In this document: positions 1,759-45,837 of the stretch, piece after piece
How the letters are laid out: each line of letters begins with the position of its first letter
Position numbering within the stretch: the first letter of the stretch is position 1
Source of the DNA: Candidatus Nomurabacteria bacterium RIFCSPHIGHO2_01_FULL_37_25
GTDB taxonomy: Bacteria > Patescibacteriota > Minisyncoccia > Phycocordibacterales > UBA9973
Length of the DNA stretch: 64,000 nt
Direction: 5' to 3'
Assembly: GCA_001786765.1 (NCBI GenBank)
Contig: MFTH01000015.1
Span: 1,548 to 65,547 of the forward strand
Made by a program: the position numbers and the translations under genes
Notes under the pieces: model-generated
Database searches by the model: none
Seen by the model: the letters and a program-made list of their open reading frames with translations, nothing else
Told to the model about the DNA's origin: nothing

Positions 1759-1800
1759 TCTTTCTTTTTTATTTTTTTTATTATACAATCTTAGGATGCA

Positions 1801-1921
1801 ATCCCGTTAGAAGCTGCAGTAGCAATTTTATTCATAAATCATGTTTATAAAAAATATAAAATTTACTAATATAATCAGGCATAGTTGCAATTTACTGACT
1901 GCGACTTGCTTCTAACGGGAT
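1801..1921 (+). mobile_element. Start-codon-associated MITE-like hairpin element at alaS
   Basis: 14-bp TIR ATCCCGTTAGAAGC/GCTTCTAACGGGAT; GGATGCAATCC duplicated at 1794-1804 and 1918-1928. Confidence 0.8.
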
Positions 1922-3701
1922 GCAATCCAATGAAATAAGATCAAGATTTTTAAAATTTTTTGAAAATCGTGGACATAAAATAATTCCTTCGGCTTCGCTT
2001 GTTCCTCACAATGACCCTTCTGCGCTTTTTAATACGGCTGGAATGCAACCTCTAGTGCCTTATTTAATGGGACAAAAACATCCGACAGGAAAGCGTATTG
2101 CAGACGTGCAGAAATGCGTGCGCACAGGAGATCTGGATGATATTGGCGACAACAGGCATCTTTCTTTTTTTGAAATGATGGGCAACTGGTCTCTTGGAGA
2201 TTATTTTAAGGAAGATGCTATCAAGTGGAGTTACGAATTTTTGACTTCAAAAAAAGAAGGTCTTGGGCTTGATCCAAACCGGCTTTATTTTACAGTTTTT
2301 GAAGGAAATGAAAATGCGCCATATGATGAAGAATCAAAAAAAATTTGGATGAATTTGGGAATTCCAGAACATCGTATTTATGCGCTTCCAGCAGATGACA
2401 ATTGGTGGAGTCCGGGAGACAATGGTCCATCAGGCCCGTGTAGTGAAATGTTTTATGATATGGTAGGTGATGTGGGTGACATAAATCATAAAGAATTTTT
2501 GCTCGCAATTAAAGAAGAGCATGTAGTCGAAATCTGGAATGATGTGTTCATGGAATACGAAAAGAAAAATGGAAAAGTTGTTGGTAAATTAAAACAAAAA
2601 AATGTTGATACTGGCGCTGGACTTGAGAGAATTACAGCGGTGATGCAAGGCAAAAAAACTGCTTATGATACGGATTTATTTAAACCTGTAATGGAAATCA
2701 TAAAAGCCAAATCAAAAAATTACAATGCTAAATCGGCTCGTATAATCGCAGACCATTTGCGCGCTAGTATTTTTATAATTTCCGAAGGCGTATTGCCTTC
2801 TAATAATGGTAGAGAATACATATTGCGTCGTCTATTGCGCAGGGCTGTTAGGCATGCGGATAATATTGGTTTTCCAGAGAATAAACTTGCTCTTAGTTTG
2901 GCAGTGATATTCATAAAACAGTACGCTGAAATTTATCCAGAATTAAAAGAAAAAAAAGATTTAATCACAGGGCAGATTCTAAAGGAAGAAAACAGATTCA
3001 GGGAAACATTGTCTAAAGGTTTAAAAGAATTTGGAAAAGGCACAGATCCGTTTATTTTATTTACGACTTATGGTTTTCCAATAGAACTCACTCTTGAACT
3101 TGCAAAAGAAAAAGGAGTAAAAATTAATATTGAAGATTTTAATAGAAAGATGATAGAACATCAGAAACTTTCTCAAACTGCATCAGCAGGGATGTTTAAG
3201 GGGGGATTAGCGAATCATAATGAAAAGACAATCAAGCTTCACACCGCGCACCATTTGCTTTTGGCCGGACTTCAAAGTGTTGTAGATAAAAATGTAAAAC
3301 AGCGAGGCAGTAATATCACTGAAGAAAGGTTGCGAATAGATTTCACTTGTGACCATAAATTGACCGAGGAAGAAAAGAAAAAGGTGGAAGATTGGGTAAA
3401 TGATAAAATTAAACGGGGGTTAAATGTCGTGCGTAAAGAGATGCCACTTAAAGATGCAGAAAAAATTGGAGCAGAAATGGAATTTGGCGCTAAATACACA
3501 GATATAGTGTCTGTGTATTTTATAGAAGATAAAGCTGGCAATATTGTGTCAAAAGAATTTTGCGGTGGTCCGCATGTCAAGAATACGACAGAATTGTATT
3601 CTTCATTACGAGAAAAATCTGGGGATAATAGCCCATTTAAAATTCAAAAAGAAGAAGCAGTAGCGCAAGGAATTCGACGCATCAAAGCTGTACTTTTGTG
3701 A
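1920..3701 (+). CDS. alaS: Alanyl-tRNA synthetase, short form without C-Ala domain
   Basis: LFNTAGMQP, QKCVR, HLSFFEMMGNWS, DTGAGLER, editing HTAHH and CGGPHV. Confidence 0.97.
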   Translation: MQSNEIRSRFLKFFENRGHKIIPSASLVPHNDPSALFNTAGMQPLVPYLMGQKHPTGKRIADVQKCVRTGDLDDIGDNRHLSFFEMMGNWSLGDYFKEDAIKWSYEFLTSKKEGLGLDPNRLYFTVFEGNENAPYDEESKKIWMNLGIPEHRIYALPADDNWWSPGDNGPSGPCSEMFYDMVGDVGDINHKEFLLAIKEEHVVEIWNDVFMEYEKKNGKVVGKLKQKNVDTGAGLERITAVMQGKKTAYDTDLFKPVMEIIKAKSKNYNAKSARIIADHLRASIFIISEGVLPSNNGREYILRRLLRRAVRHADNIGFPENKLALSLAVIFIKQYAEIYPELKEKKDLITGQILKEENRFRETLSKGLKEFGKGTDPFILFTTYGFPIELTLELAKEKGVKINIEDFNRKMIEHQKLSQTASAGMFKGGLANHNEKTIKLHTAHHLLLAGLQSVVDKNVKQRGSNITEERLRIDFTCDHKLTEEEKKKVEDWVNDKIKRGLNVVRKEMPLKDAEKIGAEMEFGAKYTDIVSVYFIEDKAGNIVSKEFCGGPHVKNTTELYSSLREKSGDNSPFKIQKEEAVAQGIRRIKAVLL

Positions 3702-3713
3702 TACAATTAAGCG

Positions 3714-4913: not shown

Positions 4914-4917
4914 TTTT

Positions 4918-6249
4918 ATGTCAAAATATTTACTGCAAGATATGATAAAAGCAAAAAATGCAAATCAGCAGACGCAAATACCTCAAAAAAAGGCTCGTTT
5001 TGACACTGTATTGTCAATAAAAAATTCTGCAAGAAACAATACAGATAATGTTTCGAGGGGGCAAGTAAATGGAACGCGGTACACACTTTGGTCTGTGGCA
5101 ATTATATCAATAATATTTTTTCTTTTTTCTCTTTCGTATTTATTTTTGAGCGCAGTGGTTACAGTAAATCCTAAAATACAAGAGATAACTTTGAACGAAA
5201 GTTTATCTGCTACCAAAGACTCCAATAAGGATGGTTTATTTTTCAATTTACTAGTAGACAATGTTTCTGGAGAAGAGAAGAGAGATATTCAAGCGAATGA
5301 GCAAAAAGATGTTTCAAATAAAGCCGTAGGCACTGCTGTCATTTTTAATTTTTTTAGTTCTTCTCCTCAAAGACTTTCCATAGACACAAGGCTTGAAGGT
5401 TCAAATGGTAAAATTTATAAAACACAGAAACAGTTAATCGTGCCGGGAATGAAAAATGACACTCCCGGGTCTATAGAAGTGGACATTTATGGAGCTGAAG
5501 CGGGCGAAGAATATAATAGTGGTCCGCTTGATTTTTCCATTTTTGGTTTTAAAGGAAGCCCTAAGTATTCTAAGTTTAAAGTGAGGACAAAGACTGGAAC
5601 AAAAATAACTGGTGGATTTATTGGAAAAGTTAATGTTATATCTGATACTGATAAGGCAGCTATTTTGACCGAATTAAATTCATCTCTTAAAACAAAGCTT
5701 TTAGCTAAAGCTACCAATCAGATTCCACCCGGTTTTATTCTTTTTAAAGATGCTATTTTTTTGAATACTGAAGAACCCATTATTTCTCTTACCCCGGATC
5801 AAAATAATAATTTTACAATAACACTCAAAGGCACTCTTTTCGGTTTTTTGTTGAATGAACAAAAATTGACACAAAAAATCGCGCAAGACAATATTGATAA
5901 ATATGATGGCAGTGACGTGTATATATCAAATATTAGAAATTTAACTTTTTCTATTTCTACCGTGCATGCGCAAGAATGGCAGACGAACCTTTCTGATAAA
6001 AAAAATATTCCTGTTGAAAATTTACAAAAGATAGATTTTAATTTATCTGGTGTTGCAAAAATCGTTTGGAAATTAGATGAGAATCAGCTGATAAATGATT
6101 TCTTGGGAAAATCAAAAAAAGATTTCAACCAAATACTATCAGAATATGACAACATTGATTCTGCTAATTTAAAAATCAGTCCTTTTTGGAAAACTTCTTT
6201 GCCTGATAAAATAAAAAATATAAAAATAATTATAAACTATCCTAAGTAA
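4918..6249 (+). CDS. Single-TM membrane protein, baseplate-J-like family typically paired with the FtsA-like gene in CPR
   Basis: TM segment near aa 55-80, KAVGTAVIFN, GEEYN, ITGGF, SPFW; adjacent to the FtsA-like gene. Confidence 0.55.
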   Translation: MSKYLLQDMIKAKNANQQTQIPQKKARFDTVLSIKNSARNNTDNVSRGQVNGTRYTLWSVAIISIIFFLFSLSYLFLSAVVTVNPKIQEITLNESLSATKDSNKDGLFFNLLVDNVSGEEKRDIQANEQKDVSNKAVGTAVIFNFFSSSPQRLSIDTRLEGSNGKIYKTQKQLIVPGMKNDTPGSIEVDIYGAEAGEEYNSGPLDFSIFGFKGSPKYSKFKVRTKTGTKITGGFIGKVNVISDTDKAAILTELNSSLKTKLLAKATNQIPPGFILFKDAIFLNTEEPIISLTPDQNNNFTITLKGTLFGFLLNEQKLTQKIAQDNIDKYDGSDVYISNIRNLTFSISTVHAQEWQTNLSDKKNIPVENLQKIDFNLSGVAKIVWKLDENQLINDFLGKSKKDFNQILSEYDNIDSANLKISPFWKTSLPDKIKNIKIIINYPK

Positions 6250-6252
6250 TCA

Positions 6253-6389
6253 TGAATTACGAAACTCGTCGAAGGCATGTCTTTTTTAGGGGGTTTCGAG
6301 GCTGTCGAGCCGAGAACTTCAGGATTTTTCAAGCTTCGAAAAATCCGTACCCTAGAAAAAGACATGCCTAGAAAGAGTTTCGTAATTCA
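6253..6389 (+). mobile_element. MITE/REP-like element of the GGCTGTCGAGCCGAG family, full copy
   Basis: About 38-bp imperfect TIRs TGAATTACGAAACTC...GGCATGTCTTTTTTAGGG; related copies at 27717, 34941, 38301 and 57856. Confidence 0.8.
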
Positions 6390-6487
6390 AAGTAAGTAAA
6401 ATATATCTCTTCTTGCGTTTGTGCTTTGTTTATATTGTGATATGATATAAATATGAAAAAGAGGAAAATAAAAGGTAAAATATTTTC

Positions 6488-6955: not shown

Positions 6956-6966
6956 TTTTATTTATT

Positions 6967-9522: not shown

Positions 9523-9531
9523 AAGAATAGT

Positions 9532-9885: not shown

Positions 9886-10005
9886 TCCCGAACGAAATCG
9901 CGGACGCATAAAATAAGTAAAATTATGAAACTGATTAAATATTTTATAAATAATAATAAAAAGGACAACGAAGCGTAAGCGTACGCGTCCTATTTCGTAC
10001 GGGAT
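9885..10005 (+). mobile_element. Start-codon-associated hairpin element at rplM (divergent copy)
   Basis: ATCCCGAACGAAAT/ATTTCGTACGGGAT arms, 121 bp; ATGA at 9882-9885 and 10004-10007. Confidence 0.7.
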
Positions 10006-10376: not shown

Positions 10377-10850
10377 ATGCCAGAAGAATTAATTGAAAAA
10401 TCAAAACCTGCCCGCAATGCTTCGCATAGCGATACAGGCGGGGATAAATATATTGAAGCCGTAGGAAGACGAAAAACTTCGACTGCCAGAGTGCGTATTA
10501 CAAAATCCGCAAAAGCCAGTTTTTTAGTAAATGGTATTGATAGTAAAGAATATTTCAAAACAGAAGGAGAACGTCGTTTAATTTTAGATCCAATAATAAA
10601 GGGATTGAAGGGGGAACAAGGAAAGGCGAGTTTAAAATGGAATGTGGAAGTGCATGTTTCGGGTGGGGGAGTTCATTCTCAATCTGAAGCAATACGACAC
10701 GGACTTGCTCGCGCTCTTTCCGTATTTGACCCAGAGACTCGCGGAAATTTAAAAGATTTAGGATACTTAAAACGCGATCCGAGAGCCAAAGAACGTAGAA
10801 AATTCGGTCTTAAAAAAGCTCGCAAAGCTCCTCAGTGGAGCAAACGCTAA
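10377..10850 (+). CDS. rpsI: 30S ribosomal protein S9 with a 36-bp in-frame palindromic insert
   Basis: GRRKTSTARV, GGGVHSQSEAIRHG, RDPRAKERRKFGLKKARKAPQWSKR. Confidence 0.98.
   Translation: MPEELIEKSKPARNASHSDTGGDKYIEAVGRRKTSTARVRITKSAKASFLVNGIDSKEYFKTEGERRLILDPIIKGLKGEQGKASLKWNVEVHVSGGGVHSQSEAIRHGLARALSVFDPETRGNLKDLGYLKRDPRAKERRKFGLKKARKAPQWSKR
10407..10442. repeat. 36-bp in-frame palindromic element (PARNASHSDTGG)
   Basis: 33/36 identical to 40837-40872 in scpB. Confidence 0.9.
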
Positions 10851-25452: not shown

Positions 25453-26100
25453 TTATTGTCTATTCTTCAGAGCATTTTTGAGAGTGTCATTGTCGGAGTA
25501 TTCGAGTTCGGTGCCAGTGGAAAGCCCTTTACCGAGAGAGGAAATTTTGATGCCAGATTTTTCTGCCGTATCTTTAAGTTGTTCTCGAATATAAGAATCA
25601 GTATGGTCGCCTTGAGGGCTTAAGGAAAAAGCTAAAATTATTTCTCTCAGTTTATTTGGGTTTTCATCTTTTGATATTTTTTGCTTCAATTCTTCAATCC
25701 TCACTCTATTTTTAGTATTTTTCTCAACAATAGGCACGAGTCCGCCTAAAATAAAATATTTACCATTATAAATTCTACTTTTTTTTACACTCTCTAAATC
25801 AGAGTCTTTTTCAACAATCATCAGAATGGAAGAGTCCATATTTTTATCAGAGCAGATTTCACATATCTTATTCCCGACGCTTGCGGTCGGGACTCCGACC
25901 CTATTAGGGCGTCGGAGAAAAAATCTAAAACATTCTTTACATTGCGATATATCTTTTTTTAAATCTAAAATTAAGCTAGATAAATTTTCTGTATAACCAT
26001 TAGTTCGAGACATTAAAAAATAAACAAAACGTCTTGCTTGCCTCTCTCCAATTCCCGGAAATTCTTTAAAAATTTCAGCTAATTTGTCTATAATATCCAT
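25453..26100 (-). CDS. recR: Recombination protein RecR with an in-frame palindromic insert in the zinc finger
   Basis: PGIGERQARR, CKEC and CEIC, Toprim domain, GTELEYSD. Confidence 0.95.
   Translation of the reverse strand: MDIIDKLAEIFKEFPGIGERQARRFVYFLMSRTNGYTENLSSLILDLKKDISQCKECFRFFLRRPNRVGVPTASVGNKICEICSDKNMDSSILMIVEKDSDLESVKKSRIYNGKYFILGGLVPIVEKNTKNRVRIEELKQKISKDENPNKLREIILAFSLSPQGDHTDSYIREQLKDTAEKSGIKISSLGKGLSTGTELEYSDNDTLKNALKNRQ
25872..25916. repeat. 45-bp in-frame palindromic element (RRPNRVGVPTASVG)
   Basis: Nested inverted repeats CCGACGC/GCGTCGG and GGTCGG/CCGACC; homologous to 20890-20934. Confidence 0.8.
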
Positions 26101-26222
26101 CCCGTTAGAAGCAGATCGCGATCAATTCACGTATCTGATATTTTATATTATTAACTTTTCCAATATTACTTAATTTCATATTTTGTTTATATTTAAATTG
26201 CGATCGCGGCTTCTAACGGGAT
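26099..26222 (-). mobile_element. Start-codon-associated hairpin element at recR
   Basis: 14-bp TIR ATCCCGTTAGAAGC; interior nearly the reverse complement of 44576-44696. Confidence 0.85.
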
Positions 26223-31080: not shown

Positions 31081-31188
31081 AATATCTCACAATAAGCGGG
31101 CTAATCGGAATATTCCGACGCCCGCTTTAACTTTTTATGGGAGAAAAAAGTTGCCAACATTTTTTAGTATTTGTGCTAAAATAAATGC

Positions 31189-31618: not shown

Positions 31619-31753
31619 AATGGTTCAAGAGCAGGCGTTGAATATTTAAAAACAAGGGCGAATGTTTTTTTGACTGACGAGACTAGAGAAAAATAGGCTT
31701 GTAAAATAACTATTTTTTATTTTTTATTTATGCTAAAATATTTTCAATACTTG

Positions 31754-31819
31754 TCCCGTTAGAAAATCAGCGGGCGGGTAAAAAGGACAGGTTTTACTAT
31801 TTTAATTTTCTAATGGGAT
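31754..31819 (+). mobile_element. Short start-codon-associated hairpin element at aspS
   Basis: TCCCGTTAGAAAAT/ATTTTCTAATGGGA arms ending in GGG-ATG. Confidence 0.65.
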
Positions 31820-33173: not shown

Positions 33174-33180
33174 TCTTAAA

Positions 33181-33528: not shown

Positions 33529-33548
33529 GAAATTTCTTATTTACAAGC

Positions 33549-34484: not shown

Positions 34485-34522
34485 AATACAATTCTTAAGA
34501 ATTTTTTTGCTATACTATAAAA

Positions 34523-34873
34523 ATGGATTTACTAAATAAAAAATGTGTGCCGTGCGAAGGGGGAGCAATGCCTCTTACACTTCCAGAAATAGAAAAATTC
34601 ATGAAGCAAGCCTCTGGCTGGACGCTCACCTCGGACGAAGATCCTAAAGAAGGGATAGTGAATGCTAGAATTTTCAAAGAATATAAATTCAAAGATTTTA
34701 TCGGCGCGATAAACTTTGTGGAGCGTGTGGCAGATGTCGCTGAAATGGAAGATCATCATCCGGATATTCATATTTATTACAACAAAGTAGTATTAGAGTT
34801 ATGGACTCACGCCATAAACGGACTTTCTGAAAATGACTTTATCGTCGCTGTGAAAGTGGATGCGATGAAATAA
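34523..34873 (+). CDS. Pterin-4a-carbinolamine dehydratase family
   Basis: CVPCEGG, HHPDI, LWTHAINGLSENDFIVA. Confidence 0.9.
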   Translation: MDLLNKKCVPCEGGAMPLTLPEIEKFMKQASGWTLTSDEDPKEGIVNARIFKEYKFKDFIGAINFVERVADVAEMEDHHPDIHIYYNKVVLELWTHAINGLSENDFIVAVKVDAMK

Positions 34874-34917
34874 AAATATTCTAATATTCTCTAAAATTAC
34901 AGAACGAAAACATTATC

Positions 34918-34937
34918 TACTTTAGTTTAGTAAAGTA
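34918..34937. promoter_or_regulatory. Third copy of the TACTTTA-N6-TAAAGTA operator
   Basis: TACTTTAGTTTAGTAAAGTA, same motif as 36252-36289. Confidence 0.6.
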
Positions 34938-34940
34938 TTT

Positions 34941-35098
34941 TAAACTACGAAACTCTTTTTAAGTATATCTTTTTTTAGGGTACCGATTTTTGAAGCTCTG
35001 CCTACCCGGCAGGTAGGTTAAAAATCCTGCCTTGCCCGTGCCGGGACGACCGAGGGAAGTTCTCAGCTCGACAGCCTCAAAACCCCACAAAAAAACAC
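34941..35098 (-). mobile_element. GGCTGTCGAGCCGAG-family element, inverted, with nested GC-rich inserts
   Basis: Reverse complement of the 6253 core, interrupted by CTGCCTACCCGGCAGGTAGG and GCCTTGCCCGTGCCGGGACGACCGAGG. Confidence 0.7.
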
Positions 35099-35142
35099 AA
35101 GTGAGCGTGGAATAATCACGGCTCACTTGTGTGAATGATGCG

Positions 35143-35751
35143 TTACTTAAAACGGAGGGCGGGACTGCCGGGGAAGTAGCCGTGATCGGCTATCCAACTC
35201 CAGCCTACCACGACCTCGCCACCGCGCTCGTGGAGATACGGTACATGCAGGCCGCCCCGGCGGTCCTGCACGACCGAACCCCAGAGAAAGACCTCCTTGC
35301 CCGCAAACAACTTGCGGAACACGGCGATACCCTTGGCTTGAATGGCAAGCCCATCCTGTAAGTTCAGGCAAGTACCGATAGCATTGTCTTTCTTCAGGCG
35401 GTCGTAGATGGTGTTGTTGCCAACCATCCCCCCACGCTTCTGGTCGTGGTGGAGCCACTGCTCCACGTCGGTCTGGAGGTCGTATTCGACAGGACCCGAG
35501 CACTCCAGCTCGGGATGCTCCAACTTCCTGAACCATGCGGGGTAAGAGGTCGGCTTGACGACCCTGTCCACAAGAATAAGGAAGTCCAGTGGGGGATCGG
35601 GGGGCTTCGGCGTTGCCCCGATCAGAAGCTTTTCGCAATGAAGACAGTATTCTCCTGGAATCACCACGCCCCAGTCTTCCTTAAGATTAATGTCTTTCCC
35701 CACAACCACCGTCGTCATTGCGTGTTTGCATGTTTCTGTTTTTTTTGCCAT
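35143..35751 (-). CDS. GC-rich orphan-family protein: N-terminal CxH...CxxC module plus a domain homologous to 30616-31080
   Basis: SD GGAGGAG; motifs shared with 30616; GC content visibly above the flanks. Confidence 0.75.
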   Translation of the reverse strand: MAKKTETCKHAMTTVVVGKDINLKEDWGVVIPGEYCLHCEKLLIGATPKPPDPPLDFLILVDRVVKPTSYPAWFRKLEHPELECSGPVEYDLQTDVEQWLHHDQKRGGMVGNNTIYDRLKKDNAIGTCLNLQDGLAIQAKGIAVFRKLFAGKEVFLWGSVVQDRRGGLHVPYLHERGGEVVVGWSWIADHGYFPGSPALRFK

Positions 35752-35789
35752 AACTCCTCCATAAAGAACTAAAGAGTTTGCTAAATTGC

Positions 35790-35821
35790 AAAACCCCTTC
35801 CTAAAAACTTAGGAAGGGGTT
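35790..35821 (-). terminator. Terminator hairpin of the putative His attenuator
   Basis: AACCCCTTCCTAA/TTAGGAAGGGGTT 13-bp stem; short U run on the minus strand. Confidence 0.7.
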
Positions 35822-35847
35822 GATTTCGAAAAAATATTTACAAATAA

Positions 35848-36246
35848 TTACGAGCTCAAAAGCAACTCTTTCCTAAGTTTGGAGGAGTTGTGATGATGAC
35901 TTGATAATCTAGCCAAAATTAAACGGTAACCGCCCAAGTTGCCTTTGAGCCATTTTGCAATTCGAGCAATAGTCGCAGAGGAAAGTCCTGTTTTTTCAAT
36001 TATATAATTATATTGCATATTAGAAAAAAGAAGGGAAGCAGCCTCGAGACGATTAGCAAATTCTTGAATTTCGCCTTTTGTCATTAAATCACGCAGAAAG
36101 AGTTTAGCTTCATCAGCATTTTTCAAAACCAAGATAGCCTCAATTAACTGCTTGTTCTCCCGTGTACTCCAGTCTATTTTAGACCCAATTTGCCTAACTA
36201 ATTTGACTGTTTCTATTGATGTTTTATCATTCATTCCTTTACTCAT
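35848..36246 (-). CDS. YerC/YecD (TrpR-family, HisR-like) repressor with an HHH-containing tail
   Basis: FLRDLMT, EI, RLEAA, TGLSSATIARIAKWL, GGYRL. Confidence 0.85.
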   Translation of the reverse strand: MSKGMNDKTSIETVKLVRQIGSKIDWSTRENKQLIEAILVLKNADEAKLFLRDLMTKGEIQEFANRLEAASLLFSNMQYNYIIEKTGLSSATIARIAKWLKGNLGGYRLILARLSSHHHNSSKLRKELLLSS

Positions 36247-36251
36247 TCCGA

Positions 36252-36289
36252 TACTTTAGCAAACTAAAGTACTTTAGTCAAGTAAAGTA
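36252..36289 (-). promoter_or_regulatory. Two overlapping TACTTTA-N6-TAAAGTA operators covering the promoter of the YerC-like gene
   Basis: Boxes at 36252-36271 and 36270-36289; minus strand reads TTGACT-N17-TAAAGT-N6-ATG. Confidence 0.8.
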
Positions 36290-36372
36290 GATATGAGGGT
36301 GTGGATAAGTATAATTTATTTATATAATTAAAGTACTTGCATTAATATATGCGAATATGCTAATATACACAT

Positions 36373-36660
36373 ATGTCTGAATTATGCAAACAAATGGCCA
36401 AAATGGGGAAGGGTTTAGGCAATGAAAACCGTTTTACTATTCTTCAGGTTCTTATGAAAAAACCAAGTACCGTGGGAGAAATTAGTAAAAAAGTAGAATT
36501 GCCTCAGCCTTCCGTATCACAACATTTAAAAGTTCTCAAAGAGGCAAATCTTGTAGAAAATACTCGCAAAGGGCAAGAAGTTTTATATAAAGTTAATGTT
36601 TCTTTTATGGCTTCTTTACTTAAAACATTAACAACTAATCTATCAAATAAAAATTATTAA
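36373..36660 (+). CDS. ArsR/SmtB-family regulator
   Basis: LGNENRFTIL, QPSVSQHLKVLKEANLV, RKGQEVLY. Confidence 0.9.
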   Translation: MSELCKQMAKMGKGLGNENRFTILQVLMKKPSTVGEISKKVELPQPSVSQHLKVLKEANLVENTRKGQEVLYKVNVSFMASLLKTLTTNLSNKNY

Positions 36661-36685
36661 CTAATTTATATAAATACTAAATACT

Positions 36686-37303
36686 ATGAATTACAACAAA
36701 TTAGCAACAAAAGAAGTAGTACAAAAAGTCGTCCAGGCTCTTGGTAAGAGAAATGTTGAAGCTGTTGTGGTAGAAAATGGTAGGGAAGCATTAGCAAAAA
36801 TAAAAGAGCTCATTCCAAAAAATACATCGGTTATGAACGGATCTTCTGTTACGCTTGAGCAAATAGGTTTTATAGATTATCTAAAAGAAGAGAAACATGG
36901 ATGGAATAACCTTCATGCAGGAATAATTGCGGAAAAAGATCCCACAAAACAAAGTTTGCTTCGTAAGCAGGCTCTGCTTTCTGATTATTATTTAGGAAGC
37001 GTGCATGCTCTCGCAGAAACAGGCGAATTTATCATTGCATCAAATACTGGCAGTCAATTACCACATATAGTTTTTTCTTCTTCTAATCTTATTTTTGTAG
37101 TTAGTACAAAGAAAATTGTTCCGACTCTTCCAGACGCCACAAACCGCCTCATAAAACACGTAGTACCACTTGAAGACGCGCAAATGAAAAGAAAATATGG
37201 CGTTGGCACTGCAGTTAATAAAGTTTTCACATTCTATAATGAAAATCCGATGATGGGTAGAAAAATAATAATGATATTAGTAAACGATGACCTTGGGTTT
37301 TAA
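36686..37303 (+). CDS. LUD-domain (lactate utilization family) protein
   Basis: GSSVTLEQIG, LGSVHALAETG, SNTGSQ, KKIVP. Confidence 0.8.
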   Translation: MNYNKLATKEVVQKVVQALGKRNVEAVVVENGREALAKIKELIPKNTSVMNGSSVTLEQIGFIDYLKEEKHGWNNLHAGIIAEKDPTKQSLLRKQALLSDYYLGSVHALAETGEFIIASNTGSQLPHIVFSSSNLIFVVSTKKIVPTLPDATNRLIKHVVPLEDAQMKRKYGVGTAVNKVFTFYNENPMMGRKIIMILVNDDLGF

Positions 37304-37308
37304 TCAAA

Positions 37309-39885
37309 TTATTTATCCAAAAACTTCTCAATAATTTTTTCATCTCTTTTTAGCCAAGCGATATTGCCTTCTAGTCGCTCTAGGACTTGCTCTATAGCGC
37401 GTTTAGCGCCCGGAGCATCATGAGTGGTAAAGAATTTTTTGAAAGACCTCAAGTGTTTTACTTCTGCAGTTCCCCCTATCGCTTTGACTAATCGCGACAA
37501 TGTATGTCCACCGTCGCCATAGCGTAAGACAAGTGTCTTCCAGTTTTTTCGAATAAAATCAAACCAAATATCACGACCCACCACATTTCCTCCTACAGAG
37601 AAAATGATGCTGATGCTGTCTTGAGCGCGGACGTGTTTTGATAATGAAAATTCACAAGCGAGTTTTAATAACTTAGGATCTTGGAAATCTCCCAAGGCGT
37701 TGCCAATTCTATTTTTCTCCTCATGCAAAGTTTCTCGCTTGTATTTTTTTATAAAAGTTTGATATTCTTTTCTGCCGCCATTTGTGGCTACAACTGCATA
37801 TATGCTTGCGCGAATATCAGGATTAATATAGCCTCCAGATTGCATTTTTGCAAATTTTTTTCTCGCTTCAGAAATTATTTTTTTATCACCAGAACGTCCA
37901 GCGCGAGAAATCGCAAGTGAACGAAGTAAAGTATCAGTATGAGTTTCATTTTTCTTTTTTTCCCAACCGAGCTTCGTAGCGAGAGGGGAGAATAATTTGA
38001 GTATTAGCCCACCCAATTTAATTTTCATTTTCGTTTTAGCGAGAAGGGCTTCGAGTCTTCCGAGACCCATCGCAAGCTCAAGCCAAACACTATAATTATC
38101 TTCATTTTCATAGCTAGATAAAAATTCCAATGCATAACTCGTAGAAATAGCGCCTGCTTCTGCTAGAGCGAAAAGGTCTCTGATGATACCAAGTCTATCG
38201 CGAGGAGATAAGAGTTTGTTTTTTACAGGTATTTTTAGTTTTTCTAAAAGTTCTCTGGAATACGCTGTTCGATAAAAACCAGCCTCACCAAAGTTTAGTT
38301 TCAGAAAATTCTTTCTTAGTGCAAATTTTCTCTCAACGCGAATATTTTTCTGCTGAAAAATTGCTATACTCGGCTCGACAGCCTGCGCAATGTTTCGCGA
38401 AAATTGCACTTGCGACGAATTTTTGATAGGCACTTGCCATAAAGTTTTATCTTTTATTTTAGATTTAGAAATAGGGCTTGCAAAAAATCTTTCTTGAGAC
38501 AAATTTATTTTTTTATTTACAATATCTGCTCTTATCACCGGATAGCCAGATTTTGAAGTCCAGTTATGCATTATTTTTGTAACGGGCTTTTTGGAAACTT
38601 TTTCAAATGCTTGCCAAAGATGGAGAGTTTCTGTATTTTTATAACTATGCTTTTTTAAATAATACCGCAGTCCGTCTCTAAAATCTTTTTCTCCTAAATA
38701 ATCAGCAAGCATGCGAATGATTGACGCTCCTTTGGCATACGATACTTCATCAAATATTTCACCAATTTCATCAGGATGATATACTTCGATTTCAATAGGA
38801 TGAGTATTAAGAAGAGCGTCTAGCCGTAATGCCGCGCCTAATTCGTTAGTAGAAAATTGAGTCCAAATGTCCCATTTGGGAAAAAGTTTATCAACAGCTA
38901 AATATTCTATATAGGAAGCAAAACCTTCATTTAACCATAAATGCGTCCACCACTGCATCGTCACTAAATTGCCAAACCATTGATGCGCTATCTCGTGCGC
39001 AATAACAAGCGCGACCCATTGTTTATTTGATAGAGATGAATGATCTTCGTCAACCAAAAGCGCGCTTTCTCGGTAGGTGATTGCGCCCCAATTTTCCATC
39101 GCCCCAGATGTAAAGTCTGGTATAGCTATCATGTCTAGTGCAGGTAGGGGGTAAGCAATGTTAAAATATTCATTATAAAATTCTAAGGTTTTCACTGCGC
39201 ACTCTAATGCAAATTTAGCTTGATGTTTTTTTCCAAAAGTAGTAAAAACACGCACCTTTATATTATTTTTTGTTTTAGATTCAAGATATTCAAAATCACC
39301 TACAATAAACGCTACTAAATATGTAGACATCTTTGGCGTGGGAGAAAATCTCACAATTTGGTATCCTCCTTCATGCTCCGATACTGAAACTGGTAAAGTG
39401 TTTGAAATAGCGCTTTTGCCTTTTTGGATAATAAGTGAAATATGGAAAATGGCTTTTTGCGCTGGTTCATCAAAACAAGGGAAAGCCCTTCTTGCATCTG
39501 TGGGCTCAAACTGCGTTGTTGCTATATGATGTTCTTTATCTAAAATAAAATATTTACTTTTGTAAAACCCTCGCATTTTATCATTGAGTATTCCTCTAAA
39601 TACGATAGTGAGTTTTGTTTTGCCAATAGGAATAAATTTAGAAAAAATAAAAGTTGCTGTTTCGTTTTTTTTATTATAAGACACTTCAGCGAACAGCTCA
39701 CCTATGCGAACTGTTGCTATTTCAAGCTCTTTTGAATGAAGAGTTAATGTTTTAGTTTTTTTAAAAACAGAAAATGTTATAGTTTCCACGCCTTCAAAAG
39801 TAAAATTATCCAAATCTGGCTTTAGCTCTATATTGTATTCTATCGGAATAATGTTTTTTGAAAGTCGGACTCCTTTTAATTTCAT
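37309..39885 (-). CDS. pepN: M1-family aminopeptidase
   Basis: TQFEPTDARRAFPCFDEP, GAMENWG, HEIAHQW...NEGFA, ERAP1-like C-terminus. Confidence 0.95.
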   Translation of the reverse strand: MKLKGVRLSKNIIPIEYNIELKPDLDNFTFEGVETITFSVFKKTKTLTLHSKELEIATVRIGELFAEVSYNKKNETATFIFSKFIPIGKTKLTIVFRGILNDKMRGFYKSKYFILDKEHHIATTQFEPTDARRAFPCFDEPAQKAIFHISLIIQKGKSAISNTLPVSVSEHEGGYQIVRFSPTPKMSTYLVAFIVGDFEYLESKTKNNIKVRVFTTFGKKHQAKFALECAVKTLEFYNEYFNIAYPLPALDMIAIPDFTSGAMENWGAITYRESALLVDEDHSSLSNKQWVALVIAHEIAHQWFGNLVTMQWWTHLWLNEGFASYIEYLAVDKLFPKWDIWTQFSTNELGAALRLDALLNTHPIEIEVYHPDEIGEIFDEVSYAKGASIIRMLADYLGEKDFRDGLRYYLKKHSYKNTETLHLWQAFEKVSKKPVTKIMHNWTSKSGYPVIRADIVNKKINLSQERFFASPISKSKIKDKTLWQVPIKNSSQVQFSRNIAQAVEPSIAIFQQKNIRVERKFALRKNFLKLNFGEAGFYRTAYSRELLEKLKIPVKNKLLSPRDRLGIIRDLFALAEAGAISTSYALEFLSSYENEDNYSVWLELAMGLGRLEALLAKTKMKIKLGGLILKLFSPLATKLGWEKKKNETHTDTLLRSLAISRAGRSGDKKIISEARKKFAKMQSGGYINPDIRASIYAVVATNGGRKEYQTFIKKYKRETLHEEKNRIGNALGDFQDPKLLKLACEFSLSKHVRAQDSISIIFSVGGNVVGRDIWFDFIRKNWKTLVLRYGDGGHTLSRLVKAIGGTAEVKHLRSFKKFFTTHDAPGAKRAIEQVLERLEGNIAWLKRDEKIIEKFLDK
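38301..38426 (-). repeat. GGCTGTCGAGCCGAG-family element in frame inside pepN
   Basis: 38369-38384 is the exact reverse complement of 6299-6314; arms AGTGCAAATTTTC/GAAAATTGCACT. Confidence 0.65.
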
Positions 39886-39931
39886 ATGTTTCAGTATATC
39901 TTTTTTTACAAAAAATGCTACTATTATAAGG

Positions 39932-40672
39932 ATGGAAAAAGAAATTTATCAAATAAAGACAACTGGCTTTGAAGGTCCATTCGGTCTACTTTTAGAGTTA
40001 ATAGAGAAGCGAAAGCTTTTTATCAACGATGTATCACTTGCGAGTGTTACAGAAGATTACTTGAATTATATGCAAAAATTGGGCGGACTTAATAGCGCAG
40101 AAATCTCCTCTTTTGTTCTAGTGGCGTCAACATTGATTCTAATCAAATCAAAATCTCTTTTGCCAAATTTAAATCTAACAACAGAAGAAGAAGGAGATAT
40201 CAAAAATCTAGAAGAAAGATTGCGTTTGTATGAGCTATTTATAAAATTAAGCAGAAACATAAAAAATAATTTTGCTAAAAAAATAATTTTCGCGCCGCTT
40301 GAAAGAAAAAATGATGTTTTGGTATTTTTGCCAGATGACCAAATTACCAAAGAAAGTATGATGATTTTTGCTCGTAATGTCTTAGGAACAATACCTAAAA
40401 AAGTATTCTTGCCGAAAGTAGAAGTGCGAAAAGTCATCAGTATTGAAGAGATGATTGAAAAATTAACGCAAAGAATAAAAAATTCGCTAAAAATGAATTT
40501 CAAAGACCTAAATGGGGAAATAGCCACCCGTGAAGAAAAAATAGTTATGATTGTGGGATTTCTTGCTATGCTAGAGCTTGTTCGGCAAGGAATTATTCAT
40601 GCAGCGCAAGATAGCGGTTTTTCCGACATTATTCTAGAGAAAACGGAAACTAAAGAAAATAATAATTTATGA
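39932..40672 (+). CDS. scpA: Segregation/condensation protein A (start moved to ATG 39932)
   Basis: FEGPFGLLLELI, IKSKSLLP, FLAMLELVRQG. Confidence 0.93.
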   Translation: MEKEIYQIKTTGFEGPFGLLLELIEKRKLFINDVSLASVTEDYLNYMQKLGGLNSAEISSFVLVASTLILIKSKSLLPNLNLTTEEEGDIKNLEERLRLYELFIKLSRNIKNNFAKKIIFAPLERKNDVLVFLPDDQITKESMMIFARNVLGTIPKKVFLPKVEVRKVISIEEMIEKLTQRIKNSLKMNFKDLNGEIATREEKIVMIVGFLAMLELVRQGIIHAAQDSGFSDIILEKTETKENNNL

Positions 40673-41259
40673 TCACCTTAGAATCAAAAATTGAAGCAAT
40701 ACTTTTTTGGAAAGGGGAGCCAATTTCACGAAAGAAACTCGTAGAGATTTTAAAAGTTACTCCAAATGAAATAAACGAGGCAATAGAGAAATTAAAAATA
40801 AACTTGCAAAGTAGGGGAATAGTCTTATTAGAAAAACCCGCCCACAATGCTTCGCATAGCGATGCAGGCGGGGAAAACGAAATCACGCTCGGCACGGCGC
40901 CTGAGCTCTCTAAACTTATTGAGGATTTACAGAAAGAAGAATTAAATAAAGAACTTTCTAAAGCCAGCCTAGAAACACTCTCAATAATTCTTTATAAAAA
41001 TGGAGCAAATAGAGCTGAAATTGACTATATCAGAGGAGTCAACTCTAGTTTTACTTTGCGCGCTTTATCTATCAGGGGTCTCGTAGAGAAAAATCTAGAT
41101 TCTAAAGATAGTAGAAGGTATATTTATAAACCGAGTTTTGAATTAATGTCTTATATGGGCATAAAATCTATGGAAGAATTACCTGACTATGGTGAAGTTA
41201 ACAGCTCAATAAATACTGCAGTAAAAAATTTAGAAGAGGAGGATAATGGGAAGGAATAA
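40669..41259 (+). CDS. scpB: Segregation/condensation protein B with a 36-bp in-frame insert
   Basis: IEAILF, LSKASLETLSIILY, RAEIDYIRGVNS. Confidence 0.93.
   Translation: MITLESKIEAILFWKGEPISRKKLVEILKVTPNEINEAIEKLKINLQSRGIVLLEKPAHNASHSDAGGENEITLGTAPELSKLIEDLQKEELNKELSKASLETLSIILYKNGANRAEIDYIRGVNSSFTLRALSIRGLVEKNLDSKDSRRYIYKPSFELMSYMGIKSMEELPDYGEVNSSINTAVKNLEEEDNGKE
40837..40872. repeat. 36-bp in-frame palindromic element (PAHNASHSDAGG)
   Basis: 33/36 identical to 10407-10442. Confidence 0.9.
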
Positions 41260-41404
41260 TAATAAGAAGAATAATACGGAAGAAAAAATAGAATAAAAAA
41301 AATGTTTAACCAAATACTTACAACTCTGCTATCGCAGAAATATAAGTAAAAATGAAATAAGTTATGAATAATAATAAACAAGATAATTATCAGCAAGAAG
41401 TGTA

Positions 41405-42215
<811 letters not shown>

Positions 42216-42217
<2 letters not shown>

Positions 42218-42335
42218 CCCGTTAGAGACAGGTCGCAGTCTTCGCTTTCTGTGAATTATTTTTAATATAGTTGATTGTCATAGTAATATTGATTTATTTA
42301 TTATATCCCATTGCGACCGCGGTCTCTAACGGGAT
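42216..42335 (-). mobile_element. Start-codon-associated hairpin element at the VanY-like gene
   Basis: 14-bp TIR ATCCCGTTAGAGAC/GTCTCTAACGGGAT; inner stem GGTCGCA/TGCGACC. Confidence 0.8.
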
Positions 42336-42395
42336 TCACTTAAAAACAATAACACATTGCTGTATTTTAATCAAAAAAATGTTATATTTACTCAT

Positions 42396-43454
42396 ATGTA
42401 TTTCAATTTGATTAAAATATTTTTGCCAACGACAGTGGCTTTTTTCTTAGGTCTTTCCTTCACGCCGATAGCCACCCATTTTTTTTACAAATACAAAATG
42501 TGGAAAAAATATTCCAGAAGCGCAATAACAACCACTTCTTCCGACTTTTCAAAAATCCATAATGAAAAAGCTGAATTAAAAACTCCTCGGATAGGCGGAA
42601 TAATAATCTGGATTTCTGTTCTTGCAACTGTTATTATTTTTTATTTTATATCAATTTTATTCCCATCAACGGGAAGTTCGGAAATAAATTTTCTAAGTAG
42701 AAACCAGACTTTTATACCACTCTTTACCCTTATCGCAGGGTCTTTGATTGGATTATTGGACGATCTAATTCAAATCTACGGAACAGGAAAATTTGCTCGC
42801 GATGATAAATCTTGGCGTAAATGGAAAGCTTTTTTAGTAGGGTTTCTTTCTCTTCTTATTGGTATTTGGTTTTTTTATAAATTAGGAATGACTTCTATTC
42901 ATATTCCATTTATGGGAGAAATGTATTTGGGTATTTTAATTATTCCATTTTTTATAATAGTCGCCTTGGCGACTTTTTCTGGGGGAGTGATAGATGGAAT
43001 AGACGGACTCTCTGGAGGAGTTTTAGCTTCAATTTTCGCGGCTTACTCCACGATAGCGTATGCCAACAGTCAAATAGACCTTGCCGCATTTTCTGCTGTT
43101 ATAACTGGAGCAATACTGGCATTTCTTTGGTTTAATATTCCACCAGCCAGATTCTATATGGGTGAAACAGGTATTATGGGACTTACGATAACTTTAGCGA
43201 CACTAGCCTTTTTAACTAACACAGTTTTGATTCTTCCGATTGTTGCATTACCCCTTGTTGTTACATCTCTTTCTGTTATTTTACAACTAGCTTCAAAAAA
43301 ATTGCGAGGGGGTAAAAAAATATTCAAACTAACGCCGATTCATCACCATTTTGAAGCGATTGGATGGTCATCGTATAAAGTAACCATGCGTTTCTGGATT
43401 CTTTCAGTCGTATTTGCCATAATTGGTATAATTTTAGCAATTATCAGCAGGTAA
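42396..43454 (+). CDS. mraY: Phospho-N-acetylmuramoyl-pentapeptide transferase (start moved to ATG 42396)
   Basis: TPRIGG, GLLDD, DGIDGL, FYMGETG, PIHHHFE. Confidence 0.93.
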   Translation: MYFNLIKIFLPTTVAFFLGLSFTPIATHFFYKYKMWKKYSRSAITTTSSDFSKIHNEKAELKTPRIGGIIIWISVLATVIIFYFISILFPSTGSSEINFLSRNQTFIPLFTLIAGSLIGLLDDLIQIYGTGKFARDDKSWRKWKAFLVGFLSLLIGIWFFYKLGMTSIHIPFMGEMYLGILIIPFFIIVALATFSGGVIDGIDGLSGGVLASIFAAYSTIAYANSQIDLAAFSAVITGAILAFLWFNIPPARFYMGETGIMGLTITLATLAFLTNTVLILPIVALPLVVTSLSVILQLASKKLRGGKKIFKLTPIHHHFEAIGWSSYKVTMRFWILSVVFAIIGIILAIISR

Positions 43455-43478
43455 ATATATGCTAAAAAATAAATAATA

Positions 43479-44585
43479 ATGAAAGAGAAAAAGATAGATA
43501 GATTTTTTTTAATAATCCTCGGCCTCTTGCTCGTTATTGGAATTTCTATGTTTGTTTCCGCGTCATTGGGAGTCTTAATAAGAAATGAAAAACTTTTTTA
43601 TTCAGTGCTTTTTAGCCAGTTAGTTCTCGGTCTTGGTTTGGGGCTTCTTGGCATGTATTTTTGTTTAAAAATAAATTATAAATTTTGGCGCAGATATTCT
43701 TTTCTGATTTTTTTAGGTTCGATATTATTAACAGCATCCGTCTTTATTCCTTATTTAGGATGGACTCATGGGGGAGCGCAGAGATGGATAAAATTGGGGA
43801 ATTTTTCTTTTCAGCCCGTTGAGATTTTAAAATTTGGATTTATAATTTATTTTGCGGCTTGGTTATCTTGGGTTAAAAATAAAGTGCAAGATTTTAGGTT
43901 TGGAATTTTACCATTTGGTATAATGCTTGCGATTATCGCTACAATTTTACTCAAACAACCTGATATTAAAAGTTTCATTTTAATTACAGTAACTGGAACC
44001 TCAATGCTTTTTATTTCTGGAGTCCCTGTAAAATATATTTTAGGAGTGGGAATGGGGGCTTTACTTGTTTTAGGATCTCTTGTATTTTTTACACCGTATC
44101 TTCAAGAACGAGTAAAAACTTTTATTAATCCGGAAGCTGACCCCCGAGGGTCCTCTTATCAAATTCAACAATCCCTTATTGCCTTAGGGTCAGGCGGAAT
44201 AATTGGAAGAGGTTTTGGTCAAAGTATTCAAAAATTCGGTTATCTTCCAGAACCACAAGGAGATTCTATTTTCGCTGTTATAGGTGAGGAATTTGGTTTT
44301 ATTGGAACAAGTGTTACAATATTTCTTTTTTTGCTTTTTGCTTTGCGAGGATTTCGTATTGCCAATAATTCTCCAAATCTTTTTAGTAGACTTTTGGTCT
44401 CTGGAATTGTTATACTGATAACAGCGCAGTCATTTATGCACATTGCCTCCATTACTGGAGTATTTCCATTGACGGGGGTACCGCTTCCTTTTATGAGTCA
44501 TGGAGGCACTTCGCTTATGATATATCTTATAGCAACAGGTATTATTCTTAATGTATCAAAATTTCAAAAGCATGAATCCCGTTAG
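43479..44585 (+). CDS. ftsW: SEDS-family protein FtsW
   Basis: GAQRWI, FQPVE, QPD, LPEPQGDSIF, PLTGVPLPFMSHGG; between mraY and murG. Confidence 0.9.
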   Translation: MKEKKIDRFFLIILGLLLVIGISMFVSASLGVLIRNEKLFYSVLFSQLVLGLGLGLLGMYFCLKINYKFWRRYSFLIFLGSILLTASVFIPYLGWTHGGAQRWIKLGNFSFQPVEILKFGFIIYFAAWLSWVKNKVQDFRFGILPFGIMLAIIATILLKQPDIKSFILITVTGTSMLFISGVPVKYILGVGMGALLVLGSLVFFTPYLQERVKTFINPEADPRGSSYQIQQSLIALGSGGIIGRGFGQSIQKFGYLPEPQGDSIFAVIGEEFGFIGTSVTIFLFLLFALRGFRIANNSPNLFSRLLVSGIVILITAQSFMHIASITGVFPLTGVPLPFMSHGGTSLMIYLIATGIILNVSKFQKHESR

Positions 44586-44696
44586 AAGTCGTGATCAGGA
44601 TTGAAATATAAACAAAATATGAAATCAAATATTGAAAAAATTAATAACATAAAATATCAGATACGCGAGTTGATCGCGACCTGCTTCTAACGGGAT
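44576..44696 (+). mobile_element. Start-codon-associated hairpin element at murG; also supplies the ftsW stop codon
   Basis: TIR ATCCCGTTAGAAG/CTTCTAACGGGAT, 121 bp; ATGAA at 44572 and 44695. Confidence 0.85.
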
Positions 44697-45837
44697 GAAA
44701 ATAGTTTTTACAGGTGGCGGAACAGGCGGACATTTTTATCCCATTATTGCCATCGCTCAAAAAGTAAATCAAATAATAGATCGTGAACATATACTAGAAG
44801 GAAAGCTCTTTTATATTTCTGATAGCCCTTATGATAGGGAAATGCTTTTTGAAAATGGACTTTTGTATGAAGAAATTAATACTGGTAAGATGCGCACTCA
44901 TTTTTCCTTTAAAAGTTTTTTCCTGAATTTTTTTGATATTTTTAAAGTTTTTTTTGGTGTTATAAACGCATTTTACAAAGTTTTTTCTATTTATCCAGAT
45001 GTTGTTTTTGGTAAAGGCGGATATGCTTCATTCCCAACAATTTTTGCCGCTATAGTTTTACGTATTCCGGTTGTGATTCATGAATCAGATTCTGCGCCCG
45101 GACGGGTAAATAAGTGGGCTGGGTATTTTGCTAAAAAAATAGCTGTTTCTTTTATAGAAACAGCTGATTATTTTCCCAAAAAAAATGTAGCTTGGACGGG
45201 TCAACCCATAAGAATTGAAATAGAACATCCCGCAAATCAAAAGGAAGCGCTTGATTATTTCAAACTGGAGAAAGATGTGCCGGTCATACTTATTTTAGGA
45301 GGCTCTCAAGGCGCAGAACTTATTAATAATACTATCTTAGACGCATTGCCAAAACTTGTTAAAGATTATCAAATTATCCACCAAACTGGTGTTAAAAATT
45401 TTAAAATGGTCACAAATATGGCAAAAATTGCATTAACCGACAATCAACATGAATTGAGATATCTATCTATGGCTTTTTTAAATCCTTTAGCTATGAAAAT
45501 GGCTGCGGGTGTGGCAACTATAGTTATTTCTAGAGCTGGCTCAATGTTATTTGAAATAGCGTCTTGGGGTGTGCCATCTATTTTAATACCTATAACAAAT
45601 ACAAATATGGATCATCAAAAAAAGAATGCTTTTAATTATGCTCGAGCGGGAGCTTGTAGTGTTATTGAAGAGATGAATATGACTGCTAATATTTTAACTT
45701 CAGAAATTAAAAGAATAACAGAGAATAAAGTAATATATGAAACTATGGCTCAAAATGCTAAATCTTTTGCTAAAGGAGATGCTGCGATGAAAATTGCGCG
45801 CGTGTTAGTGAACATAGCTTTAAGTCACGAGAAATAA
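44695..45837 (+). CDS. murG: MurG glycosyltransferase
   Basis: TGGGTGGH, GGYAS, GGSQGA, SRAG, HQKKNA. Confidence 0.96.
   Translation: MKIVFTGGGTGGHFYPIIAIAQKVNQIIDREHILEGKLFYISDSPYDREMLFENGLLYEEINTGKMRTHFSFKSFFLNFFDIFKVFFGVINAFYKVFSIYPDVVFGKGGYASFPTIFAAIVLRIPVVIHESDSAPGRVNKWAGYFAKKIAVSFIETADYFPKKNVAWTGQPIRIEIEHPANQKEALDYFKLEKDVPVILILGGSQGAELINNTILDALPKLVKDYQIIHQTGVKNFKMVTNMAKIALTDNQHELRYLSMAFLNPLAMKMAAGVATIVISRAGSMLFEIASWGVPSILIPITNTNMDHQKKNAFNYARAGACSVIEEMNMTANILTSEIKRITENKVIYETMAQNAKSFAKGDAAMKIARVLVNIALSHEK

Follow-up and report, generated by a model that had tools for sequence, protein, structure and literature searches.

Among the short dispersed repeats of bacteria are MITEs (miniature transposable elements with inverted repeats) that have a parent insertion sequence (IS), such as Correia/NEMIS, RUP and ERIC, and hairpin repeats such as REP/REPIN, with its HUH enzyme RAYT, and the Rickettsia palindromic elements. 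Here we describe a hairpin element that resembles these and two further systems in part, and that occurs in six copies, each on the start codon of a gene, in a 64,000-nucleotide stretch from Candidatus Nomurabacteria bacterium RIFCSPHIGHO2_01_FULL_37_25 (contig MFTH01000015.1, positions 1,548 to 65,547; hereafter the window). Mycobacterial interspersed repetitive units (MIRUs) are, as summarised elsewhere, short, apparently mobile repeats at start codons with an open reading frame (ORF) coupled to the host gene at a spacing of -4, and translational coupling is most efficient at -4 to +3 nt and reduced out to about +40 nt (PMC12548453). The Ssn nucleases (cd10448) are encoded by single-domain small GIY-YIG genes flanked by NTS/dRS3/SRM hairpins that are also dispersed alone; SsnA cuts single-stranded DNA site-specifically near the hairpin, and an IS-like architecture of Ssn/NTS was suggested, not shown, by Chenal et al. 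2025 (PMC11893778). The terms “start codon” and “Patescibacteria” do not occur in that article. A literature search, with subscription papers outside its coverage, found no published description of the present element family.

Our preferred reading, to which we give a probability of roughly two in three, is that the element is mobile DNA that inserts at start codons, that its 278-bp long form is moved by a GIY-YIG nuclease encoded within it, and that host genes are translated by ribosomes restarting at an AUG buried in the hairpin, the last two parts being likely. That the hairpins are copies of a mobile DNA element we regard as very highly probable.

All six copies lie where the first-pass annotation of the window had placed them, and all of them terminate at a start codon that opens a long ORF (Table 1). 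Counting one terminal base per end, the copies measure 119 bp at alaS, 119 bp at rplM, 122 bp at recR, 65 bp at aspS, 118 bp at the VanY-like gene and 119 bp at murG; the products are AlaRS, L13, RecR, a non-discriminating AspRS, a VanY-like carboxypeptidase and MurG, the scores of RecR and MurG being slightly below the cut-offs and that of VanY far below, which makes it a weak assignment. The bases of the gene start are repeated at the far end of the copies, as had been claimed, except at aspS, where no duplication is recognisable. The terminal inverted repeats (TIRs) had been taken to be of one type throughout, but the rplM copy belongs to a variant subfamily with TCGTACGGG ends that has four copies in the genome.

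The ends were defined on a discovery set of 85 exact-pattern short copies from 12 genomes, 67 on starts and 18 not; as in all the family counts below, kin are not independent, and the tallies include one unpublished genome (G076). The base outside the terminal CCC/GGG pairs in 67 of the 67 start-located copies, the second base out is not part of the repeat (G faces T in 13 of 67), and pairing extends to TIR positions 10, 11 and 12 in 67, 67 and 64 copies, respectively, which gives the consensus Y-CCCGTTAGA-NNN ... NNN-TCTAACGGG-R with inverted ends of 13 bp. After the last element base comes a target duplication of 3–5 bp, mostly TGNN (4 bp in 42 copies, 3 bp in 10, 5 bp in 5, unrecognisable in 10). 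A held-out set of 85 copies was drawn from other families of the class (first-listed genomes, nested copies dropped); 43 of them lie on starts, 7 at no more than 15 nt from one and 35 elsewhere, and the start copies have a 4-bp duplication in 27 of 43. The terminal GGGAT had been thought to supply the AT of the downstream ATG; instead the element gives the A alone and the T is part of the duplication. In ten copies ending C..G the upstream codon is ATG and the downstream codon GTG, so that the rebuilt start codon owes its first base to the element. A model in which the AT is part of the TIR and the duplication is 2 bp long agrees in number with many copies but fails at the 13 with G opposite T and at the ATG-to-GTG copies; a zero-base model with a 6–7-bp duplication fits 17 of 67. 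Both were rejected. The mirroring of arm changes reported earlier is borne out, the variable triplet being matched in 150 of 170 short copies (28 expected) with 13 different triplets.

Empty orthologous sites, which the annotation had proposed to look for in sister genomes, are the rule in relatives. The rplQ-rplM junction is without the element in all 29 best-matching genus relatives, in three of which the suspected ancestral ATGA overlap is intact; the alaS site is empty in 4 of 4 relatives, the recR site in 4 of 5 (the fifth keeps a right-end remnant), and the aspS site in 4 of 4 loci examined, three of these being distant AspRS homologues. The murG start, which in three other genomes is an ATGA overlap with ftsW, is filled in 5 of 31 genomes by elements that represent three or more interior types and both of two variants of the TIR, and these differences at a single start argue for repeated independent landings. 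Short copies with the exact pattern were detected in 12 of 41 relatives and 82 of 201 genomes of the class, the reversed-pattern control giving 0 in both sets. Empty sites, duplications and this patchy distribution together bear out the earlier proposal of a non-autonomous mobile element aimed at translation starts. When positions 31000-46000 were compared with contigs of four DNA runs to look for empty alleles in the same population, no precise excision joint was present among the joints listed, a result that is uninformative on excision.

Within the 726-kb genome (17 contigs), a catalogue hand-curated from exact and near-exact end motifs gave 45 element sites, 40 of them exactly on ATG or GTG starts of ORFs of at least 60 codons. 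If start (353) and intergenic (876) ATGNR sites were equally used, about 29% would be expected on starts by crude gene calls, so that the share observed exceeds chance. The claim that the element sits only on start codons is therefore true of the window and not of the family: five of the 45 sites lie elsewhere, as do 16 of 17 copies in genome G027. The five are two 48-bp hairpins, one 98-bp copy, a tandem in a gene presumed to be leuS-like and a copy in one presumed to be dnaG-like. Off the starts, 60 copies provide 119 flanks, of which 22 open with xTTGA; TAnnnT follows 16-18 nt later in 16 of these 22, against 12 of the 97 other flanks; this spacing marks -35 boxes as a second target class, also rebuilt intact downstream.

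It could be argued that there is no active targeting of start codons, that the nuclease cuts at random among TNNA-type sites, and that selection spares only those copies in which a start codon or a -35 box has been restored. The common short motif of the targets (TGAA, TTGA, TAAA), the mostly off-start copies of G027 and the second class of -35 boxes all suit this idea, and selection could still purge intergenic copies that harm promoters. We nevertheless consider it rather unlikely, given the excess of start sites over the expected share and the repeated independent hits on murG.

Several individual copies deserve mention (coordinates in Table 1). Two tandem 72-bp units lie in frame inside the leuS-like gene, the start of which also carries a copy; another copy lies a few codons into the dnaG-like gene, with an element-internal ATG in frame that would give a new start. 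Five copies within 7.4 kb each lie 5′ of a ribosomal-protein-like gene, which we take from the look of the peptides to be rplC, rplD, rpsS, rplV and rplE. An identical one-base insertion in the right TIR (TCTAAACGGG), which bulges the stem beside the AUG, is present in five copies of differing interior types, and two 74-bp copies are reversed relative to their host genes. At L284, tandem 119-bp copies are separated by ATGAAT, which argues for re-insertion into a rebuilt start codon; GGGATG also lies upstream of several other copies, where it signals an earlier copy beside them. A related hairpin, its ends CCCGTTAAAT-like, is found within a REP-like repeat in the ftsW-murG spacer of L255 and L264, off the ATG. 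In three other genomes, the same ends enclose whole tRNA genes (Ala-CGC, Pro-CGG and Ser-CGA). The window also contains other hairpin repeat families, several of them within coding regions; mnmA, for instance, contains two copies of 88 bp.

How the host genes are translated is the next question, since the stem had been expected to bury part of the AUG and folding indeed predicts that its A and U are paired. The predicted cost of opening the AUG ranges from 13 to 27 kcal/mol in the five long copies of the window and is 7 kcal/mol at aspS, and the 16S 3′ end lacks CCUCC. Five of the six copies have an ATG-initiated ORF of 17-24 codons, which in four of them stops 4 nt and in the fifth 25 nt ahead of the AUG; the earlier suggestion of re-initiation as a rescue thus finds sequence support in built-in ORFs that end beside the AUG. 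The two other rescues suggested there, RNA processing and ribosome bypass, gained no support, although no direct test was aimed at them. By a fixed test (ATG, at least 12 codons, stop within -25..+2 of the right end), a mini-ORF is present in 44 of the 67 start copies of the discovery set, as compared with 11 on the reverse strand and 15.0±3.4 in shuffles; with one copy per similarity cluster the figure is 22 of 38 against 8.9±2.3. A wider window (-28..+10), chosen after seeing the data and allowing read-through from an upstream ATG, is passed by 29 of the 40 start sites in this genome, namely 23 of 27 copies of at least 105 bp and 6 of 13 shorter ones. The mini-ORF is kept in all five murG copies, one of which is without its left arm. 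A minority of copies (17 of 67, against 0 on the reverse strand) have an internal CGGG motif that is a candidate for a competing hairpin. A constant frame from the upstream ATG across the whole element, found in 11 of 67, is not general.

As to the mobiliser, the annotation had advised looking for a longer coding element with the same ends, and there are two copies of one elsewhere in the same genome, each 278 bp long (276 bp between the CCC and GGG ends) and encoding an 84-aa GIY-YIG protein. This partner, like the mini-ORFs and the inner stem described below, had escaped the annotation; it encodes a nuclease and not a known transposase. A scan of GTDB for elements of 263-293 bp returned at least 122 stretches, of which 80 loci (81 elements) were examined, from records that are mainly Patescibacteria and also Omnitrophota, Planctomycetota, Nitrospirota, Bacteroidota and Proteobacteria, where bins may be contaminated. 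The nuclease profile matches 66 of the 81, 60 scored as intact; the remaining 15 include short-hairpin clusters. The protein is 92% identical in Nomurabacteria record L019, and among 51 aligned nucleases Y6, Y17, G19 and E63 are invariant and mean column identity is 58%, as in a tight subfamily. It matches Pfam GIY-YIG, and its structure model (predicted local distance difference test, pLDDT, 94) has a fold resembling UPF0213 BH0048 and Slx1; the closest solved sequences are 1zg2 (E 5e-9) and 1ywl, and the closest folds 1zg2 and Slx1. The gene is the sole ORF of the long form, which carries no DDE, HUH (Y1/Y2), serine or DEDD transposase. One long copy (L279) gave no Rfam match above the gathering score.

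The position of the nuclease gene relative to its host gene is telling. A host start lies within 15 nt downstream of it in 51 of 66 cases and on the other side in 5. In the 31 intact copies exactly on a start, the nuclease stops in an ATGA overlap in 23 and 4 nt before the AUG in 7, and reads on in 1; the duplicated upstream ATG is in frame with the nuclease in 18 and is its sole start in 10, as compared with none of the 29 intact copies that are not exactly on a start, all of which have their own. In many cases, then, the element borrows both the start and the stop of its target. The ORF is moreover built into both ends, its C-terminal codons being the TIR. Short copies occur in 20 of 26 genomes with the nuclease at E<=1e-39 and in 61 of 174 others. 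At L020 and L085, long copies lie at the GFT motif of pilin-like genes and the nuclease frame runs into the pilin; in four records (L034, L035, L038 and L080) the ends form very short, clustered REP-like hairpins. In this genome, tRNA-like sequences (judged by eye) have another small GIY-YIG gene directly upstream in two cases (L373 and L374), and ahead of each gene is an apparent duplicate of the 5′ part of that tRNA, split by a REP-like hairpin; possibly, these genes belong to a tRNA-targeting sister element.

Short and long forms are linked by an inner stem. In 45 of 66 long copies, against 14 in the reverse orientation, a partner can be paired, past a single bulged T, with the segment that borders the right TIR on its inner side; in 43 copies the partner lies at position 85-95, within the LRKR codons. 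In 41 codon-anchored copies of the 66, 509 paired cells are found against 425±7 (maximum 450) with the arms permuted; G-C/A-T swaps occur at positions 5, 8, 9, 11 and 13, and the compensatory pairs fall inside codons. Short copies of close relatives have the inner stem in 48 of 67, against 24 in the reverse orientation; 31 of the 48 form it as a local hairpin that begins at 81-93, and in 17 it is paired with position 16. The local hairpin is what deletion of the long-form loop is expected to leave. L301 is a 125-bp internal-deletion derivative that keeps both nuclease termini in one frame. Descent of the mini-ORFs from the nuclease C-terminus was rejected for the window copies: the profile matches 1 of 110 short copies (and there the N-terminus), and interior DNA behaves like shuffles.

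Table 1. Elements, mini-ORFs and other features, in window positions, as contig:position elsewhere in the genome (C numbers) or as handle:position in other genomes (L numbers)
Feature	Position	Strand	Remarks
Short element on alaS	1802..1920	+	Perfect 13-bp TIR; the alaS ATG has its A at base 1920
-10-like TACAAT, 6 nt, original ATG (1796)	1784..1801	+	Sequence motif; putative promoter
5-bp duplication TGCAA at alaS	1797-1801 (upstream copy), 1921-1925 (downstream copy)	+	
alaS mini-ORF, 24 codons	1841..1915	+	Stop TAA within right TIR, 4 nt before ATG
Variant-TIR element, rplQ stop to rplM start	9886..10004	+	3-bp duplication TGA from ancestral ATGA overlap
rplM mini-ORF, 17 codons	9925..9978	+	Stop 25 nt before rplM ATG
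Short element on recR, after dnaB	26100..26221	-	Upstream duplication copy decayed, TAGA vs TGGA
recR mini-ORF, 24 codons	26105..26179	-	Stop 4 nt before recR ATG
Degenerate 65-bp element on aspS	31754..31818	+	One TIR mismatch; no ATG mini-ORF
Short element on VanY-like D,D-carboxypeptidase gene	42217..42334	-	Duplication TGAA
VanY-like mini-ORF, 19 codons	42222..42281	-	Stop 4 nt before host ATG
Short element on murG, overlapping ftsW end	44577..44695	+	Duplication TGAA, 44573-44576 and 44696-44699
murG mini-ORF, 23 codons	44619..44690	+	Stop 4 nt before murG ATG
Other hairpin repeats	965-1052 and 1454-1541; 6249-6394, 27734-27784, 34936-35094, 57852-57936		
Other hairpin repeats, further families	10403-10447, 40833-40877; 20906-20938, 25868-25900		
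TCTAAACGGG copies	C3:17279, C3:18910, C8:32153, C10:93616, C13:75511		
Tandem units in leuS-like gene (L281)	C3:43409-43546		
Copy in dnaG-like gene	C16:62771-62847		
Five copies at ribosomal-protein-like genes	C8:32153-39548		
Reversed 74-bp copies	C1:8372-8445, C13:121574-121647		
tRNA-enclosing ends	L339:618-688, L290:1516-1587, L366:614-701		L366 end repeat continues acceptor stem
GIY-YIG genes upstream of tRNA-like sequences	C3:8877-9110 (L373), C16:18914-19147 (L374)		
REP-like hairpin clusters L034, L035, L038, L080			Record titles Nitrospirae, Planctomycetaceae, Deltaproteobacteria, Pirellulales

It is important to stress that a number of results weigh against restart at the buried AUG or against the nuclease as mobiliser. 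In the held-out start copies, the fixed test is passed by 16 of 43, against 6 on the reverse strand and 10.6±2.5 in shuffles, and with read-through by 20 of 43 against 13.1 (5 of 500 shuffles reach that); no ATG mini-ORF is present in 23 of the 67 discovery copies or at aspS; and open-frame length irrespective of the start is similar on the two strands (median 16 vs 13; held-out, 11 vs 10). The inner stem is not enriched in the held-out short copies (10 vs 11 of 43). Eight genomes with at least ten short copies have no nuclease at E<=1e-39, six that do have a close nuclease are free of exact-pattern short copies, and the genome under study has three Y1-transposase-like matches, two above the cut-off, that could act in trans. 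Finally, we know of no strand-transfer chemistry for the GIY-YIG domain.

As an arrangement of the sequence, coupling is thus well supported for the long form and for this lineage; elsewhere its support is weak. Within this lineage, coupling is probably the main rescue of host translation, and internal promoters or RNase III may serve other copies. The broader form of that last idea, in which the host AUG is generally freed by an RNase III cut in the stem or by a promoter in the AT-rich loop and the mini-ORFs are incidental, seems improbable. RNase III is encoded in the genome, some ORF-less copies show extended -10-like motifs (judged by eye), and the held-out ORF signal is weak, but the idea leaves unaccounted for an ORF enrichment that is strand-specific and holds after clustering in close relatives, the classical ATGA overlap of the long copies, and the murG copies, with ORFs in all of them even where the left arm is lost.

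A further alternative is that these are ordinary MITEs for which a transposase, conventional or Y1 (RAYT-like), acts in trans, with the GIY-YIG gene as cargo captured between two ends. The Y1-like genes, the many copy-rich genomes without a close nuclease, and the recurrence of the same ends around tRNA genes and as short REP-like hairpins would all be explained in this way. Yet cargo would hardly be built into both ends of the element, with the inner stem lying within its codons, nor would one gene be expected to be common to 66 of the 81 long elements examined, and no TIR motif was found within 450 bp of the three Y1 matches; we therefore consider this alternative quite improbable. A fixed, domesticated cis-regulatory RNA of the host genes, for which covarying stems and persistent uORFs might speak, is scarcely credible and, as an account of origin, largely refuted by the empty orthologous sites, the duplications, the unrelated host genes and the patchy occurrence.

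Returning to the start-codon-inserting element, we envision the following course of events. The window copies are gene-less, and insertion of the element duplicates 3–5 bp and gives the first base of the new ATG or GTG; the nuclease of the 278-bp form, of about 85 residues, would likely mobilise them. A single strand may take on a branched-hairpin fold, to be recognised and nicked by the nuclease, after which host repair would complete insertion at a TNNA-type site; by analogy with SsnA, we lean somewhat towards such a GIY-YIG mobiliser acting on a folded single strand. By landing on a start codon, the long form would acquire a host promoter, a start codon and a stop codon, and expression of the host gene would thereby run through the ORF of the element. 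Ribosomes ending that ORF would likely restart at the hairpin-buried AUG, leaving the host gene translated. Presumably the short copies retain a dummy ORF because, in a host with no anti-Shine-Dalgarno sequence in its 16S rRNA, the stem would prevent initiation if there were none.

If the nuclease is the mobiliser, the long form would be among the smallest autonomous transposons, and we know of no GIY-YIG enzyme that transposes without a reverse transcriptase. More tentatively, and at a little under even odds, the element represents a new transposon class, one of about 278 bp that moves as folded single-stranded DNA by a GIY-YIG enzyme alone and lives as a parasite of gene starts, using the promoter, start codon and stop codon of the host, concealing the rebuilt AUG in a hairpin and making translation of host genes, essential ones included, need its ORF, while the short forms keep a dummy ORF. 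The family illustrates how a selfish element can fill a 0.7-Mb genome, ribosomal-protein operons included, without gene knockout, and its host genes are natural test cases for translational coupling without Shine-Dalgarno pairing. The element is common, with exact-pattern short copies in 82 of the 201 class genomes sampled, and annotation is affected, since start codons and small ORFs at element sites are element-derived.

Among bacterial MITEs, the likeness is to short TIR elements (65–122 bp in the window) that lack a transposase, show a target duplication and empty orthologous sites, derive by internal deletion from a coding parent with the same ends, and are co-transcribed with genes. The present element differs in that its parent has no DDE, Y1, Y2 or serine transposase, its arms covary as if pairing mattered, and its insertion rebuilds start codons. 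With REP/REPIN and the Rickettsia palindromic elements it shares hairpin repeats, clustered short forms in other phyla and occasional in-frame insertion (leuS); in contrast to these, the enzyme is GIY-YIG and not HUH and the main target is the start codon, and the repeats do not flank the three Y1 matches within 450 bp. UPF0213/YhbQ, Slx1 (which cuts branched DNA) and HIGLE are nearest to the nuclease in sequence or fold, and to our knowledge none of them is part of a mobile element.

The two closest systems each supply a precedent for one part of the whole, namely start insertion with a coupled ORF in MIRUs and a small GIY-YIG gene with hairpins in Ssn, and there is a real chance that the present element is a new transposon class. 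The resemblance to MIRUs is an analogy drawn from their description, and it lies in start-codon insertion with an internal ORF, an arrangement seen in 29 of 40 start sites here; compared with MIRUs as there described, the present element has 13-bp TIRs that bury the AUG, a 3–5-bp duplication, a nuclease-coding long form and -35-box targets, and its short-copy stops lie mostly at +4 or about +21 nt instead of at -4. As for Ssn, a small single-domain GIY-YIG nuclease goes with hairpin repeats in both, the catalytic Y6, Y17 and E64 there match Y6, Y17 and E63 here (PMC11893778), and site-specific cleavage of single-stranded DNA is by analogy a plausible model for the present enzyme. The repeats themselves appear to differ, the ends here sharing only a TCCCG..CGGGA core with the NTS as printed; and set against Ssn/NTS, the element has ends that overlap the nuclease codons, target duplications, empty sites and start codons as its targets.

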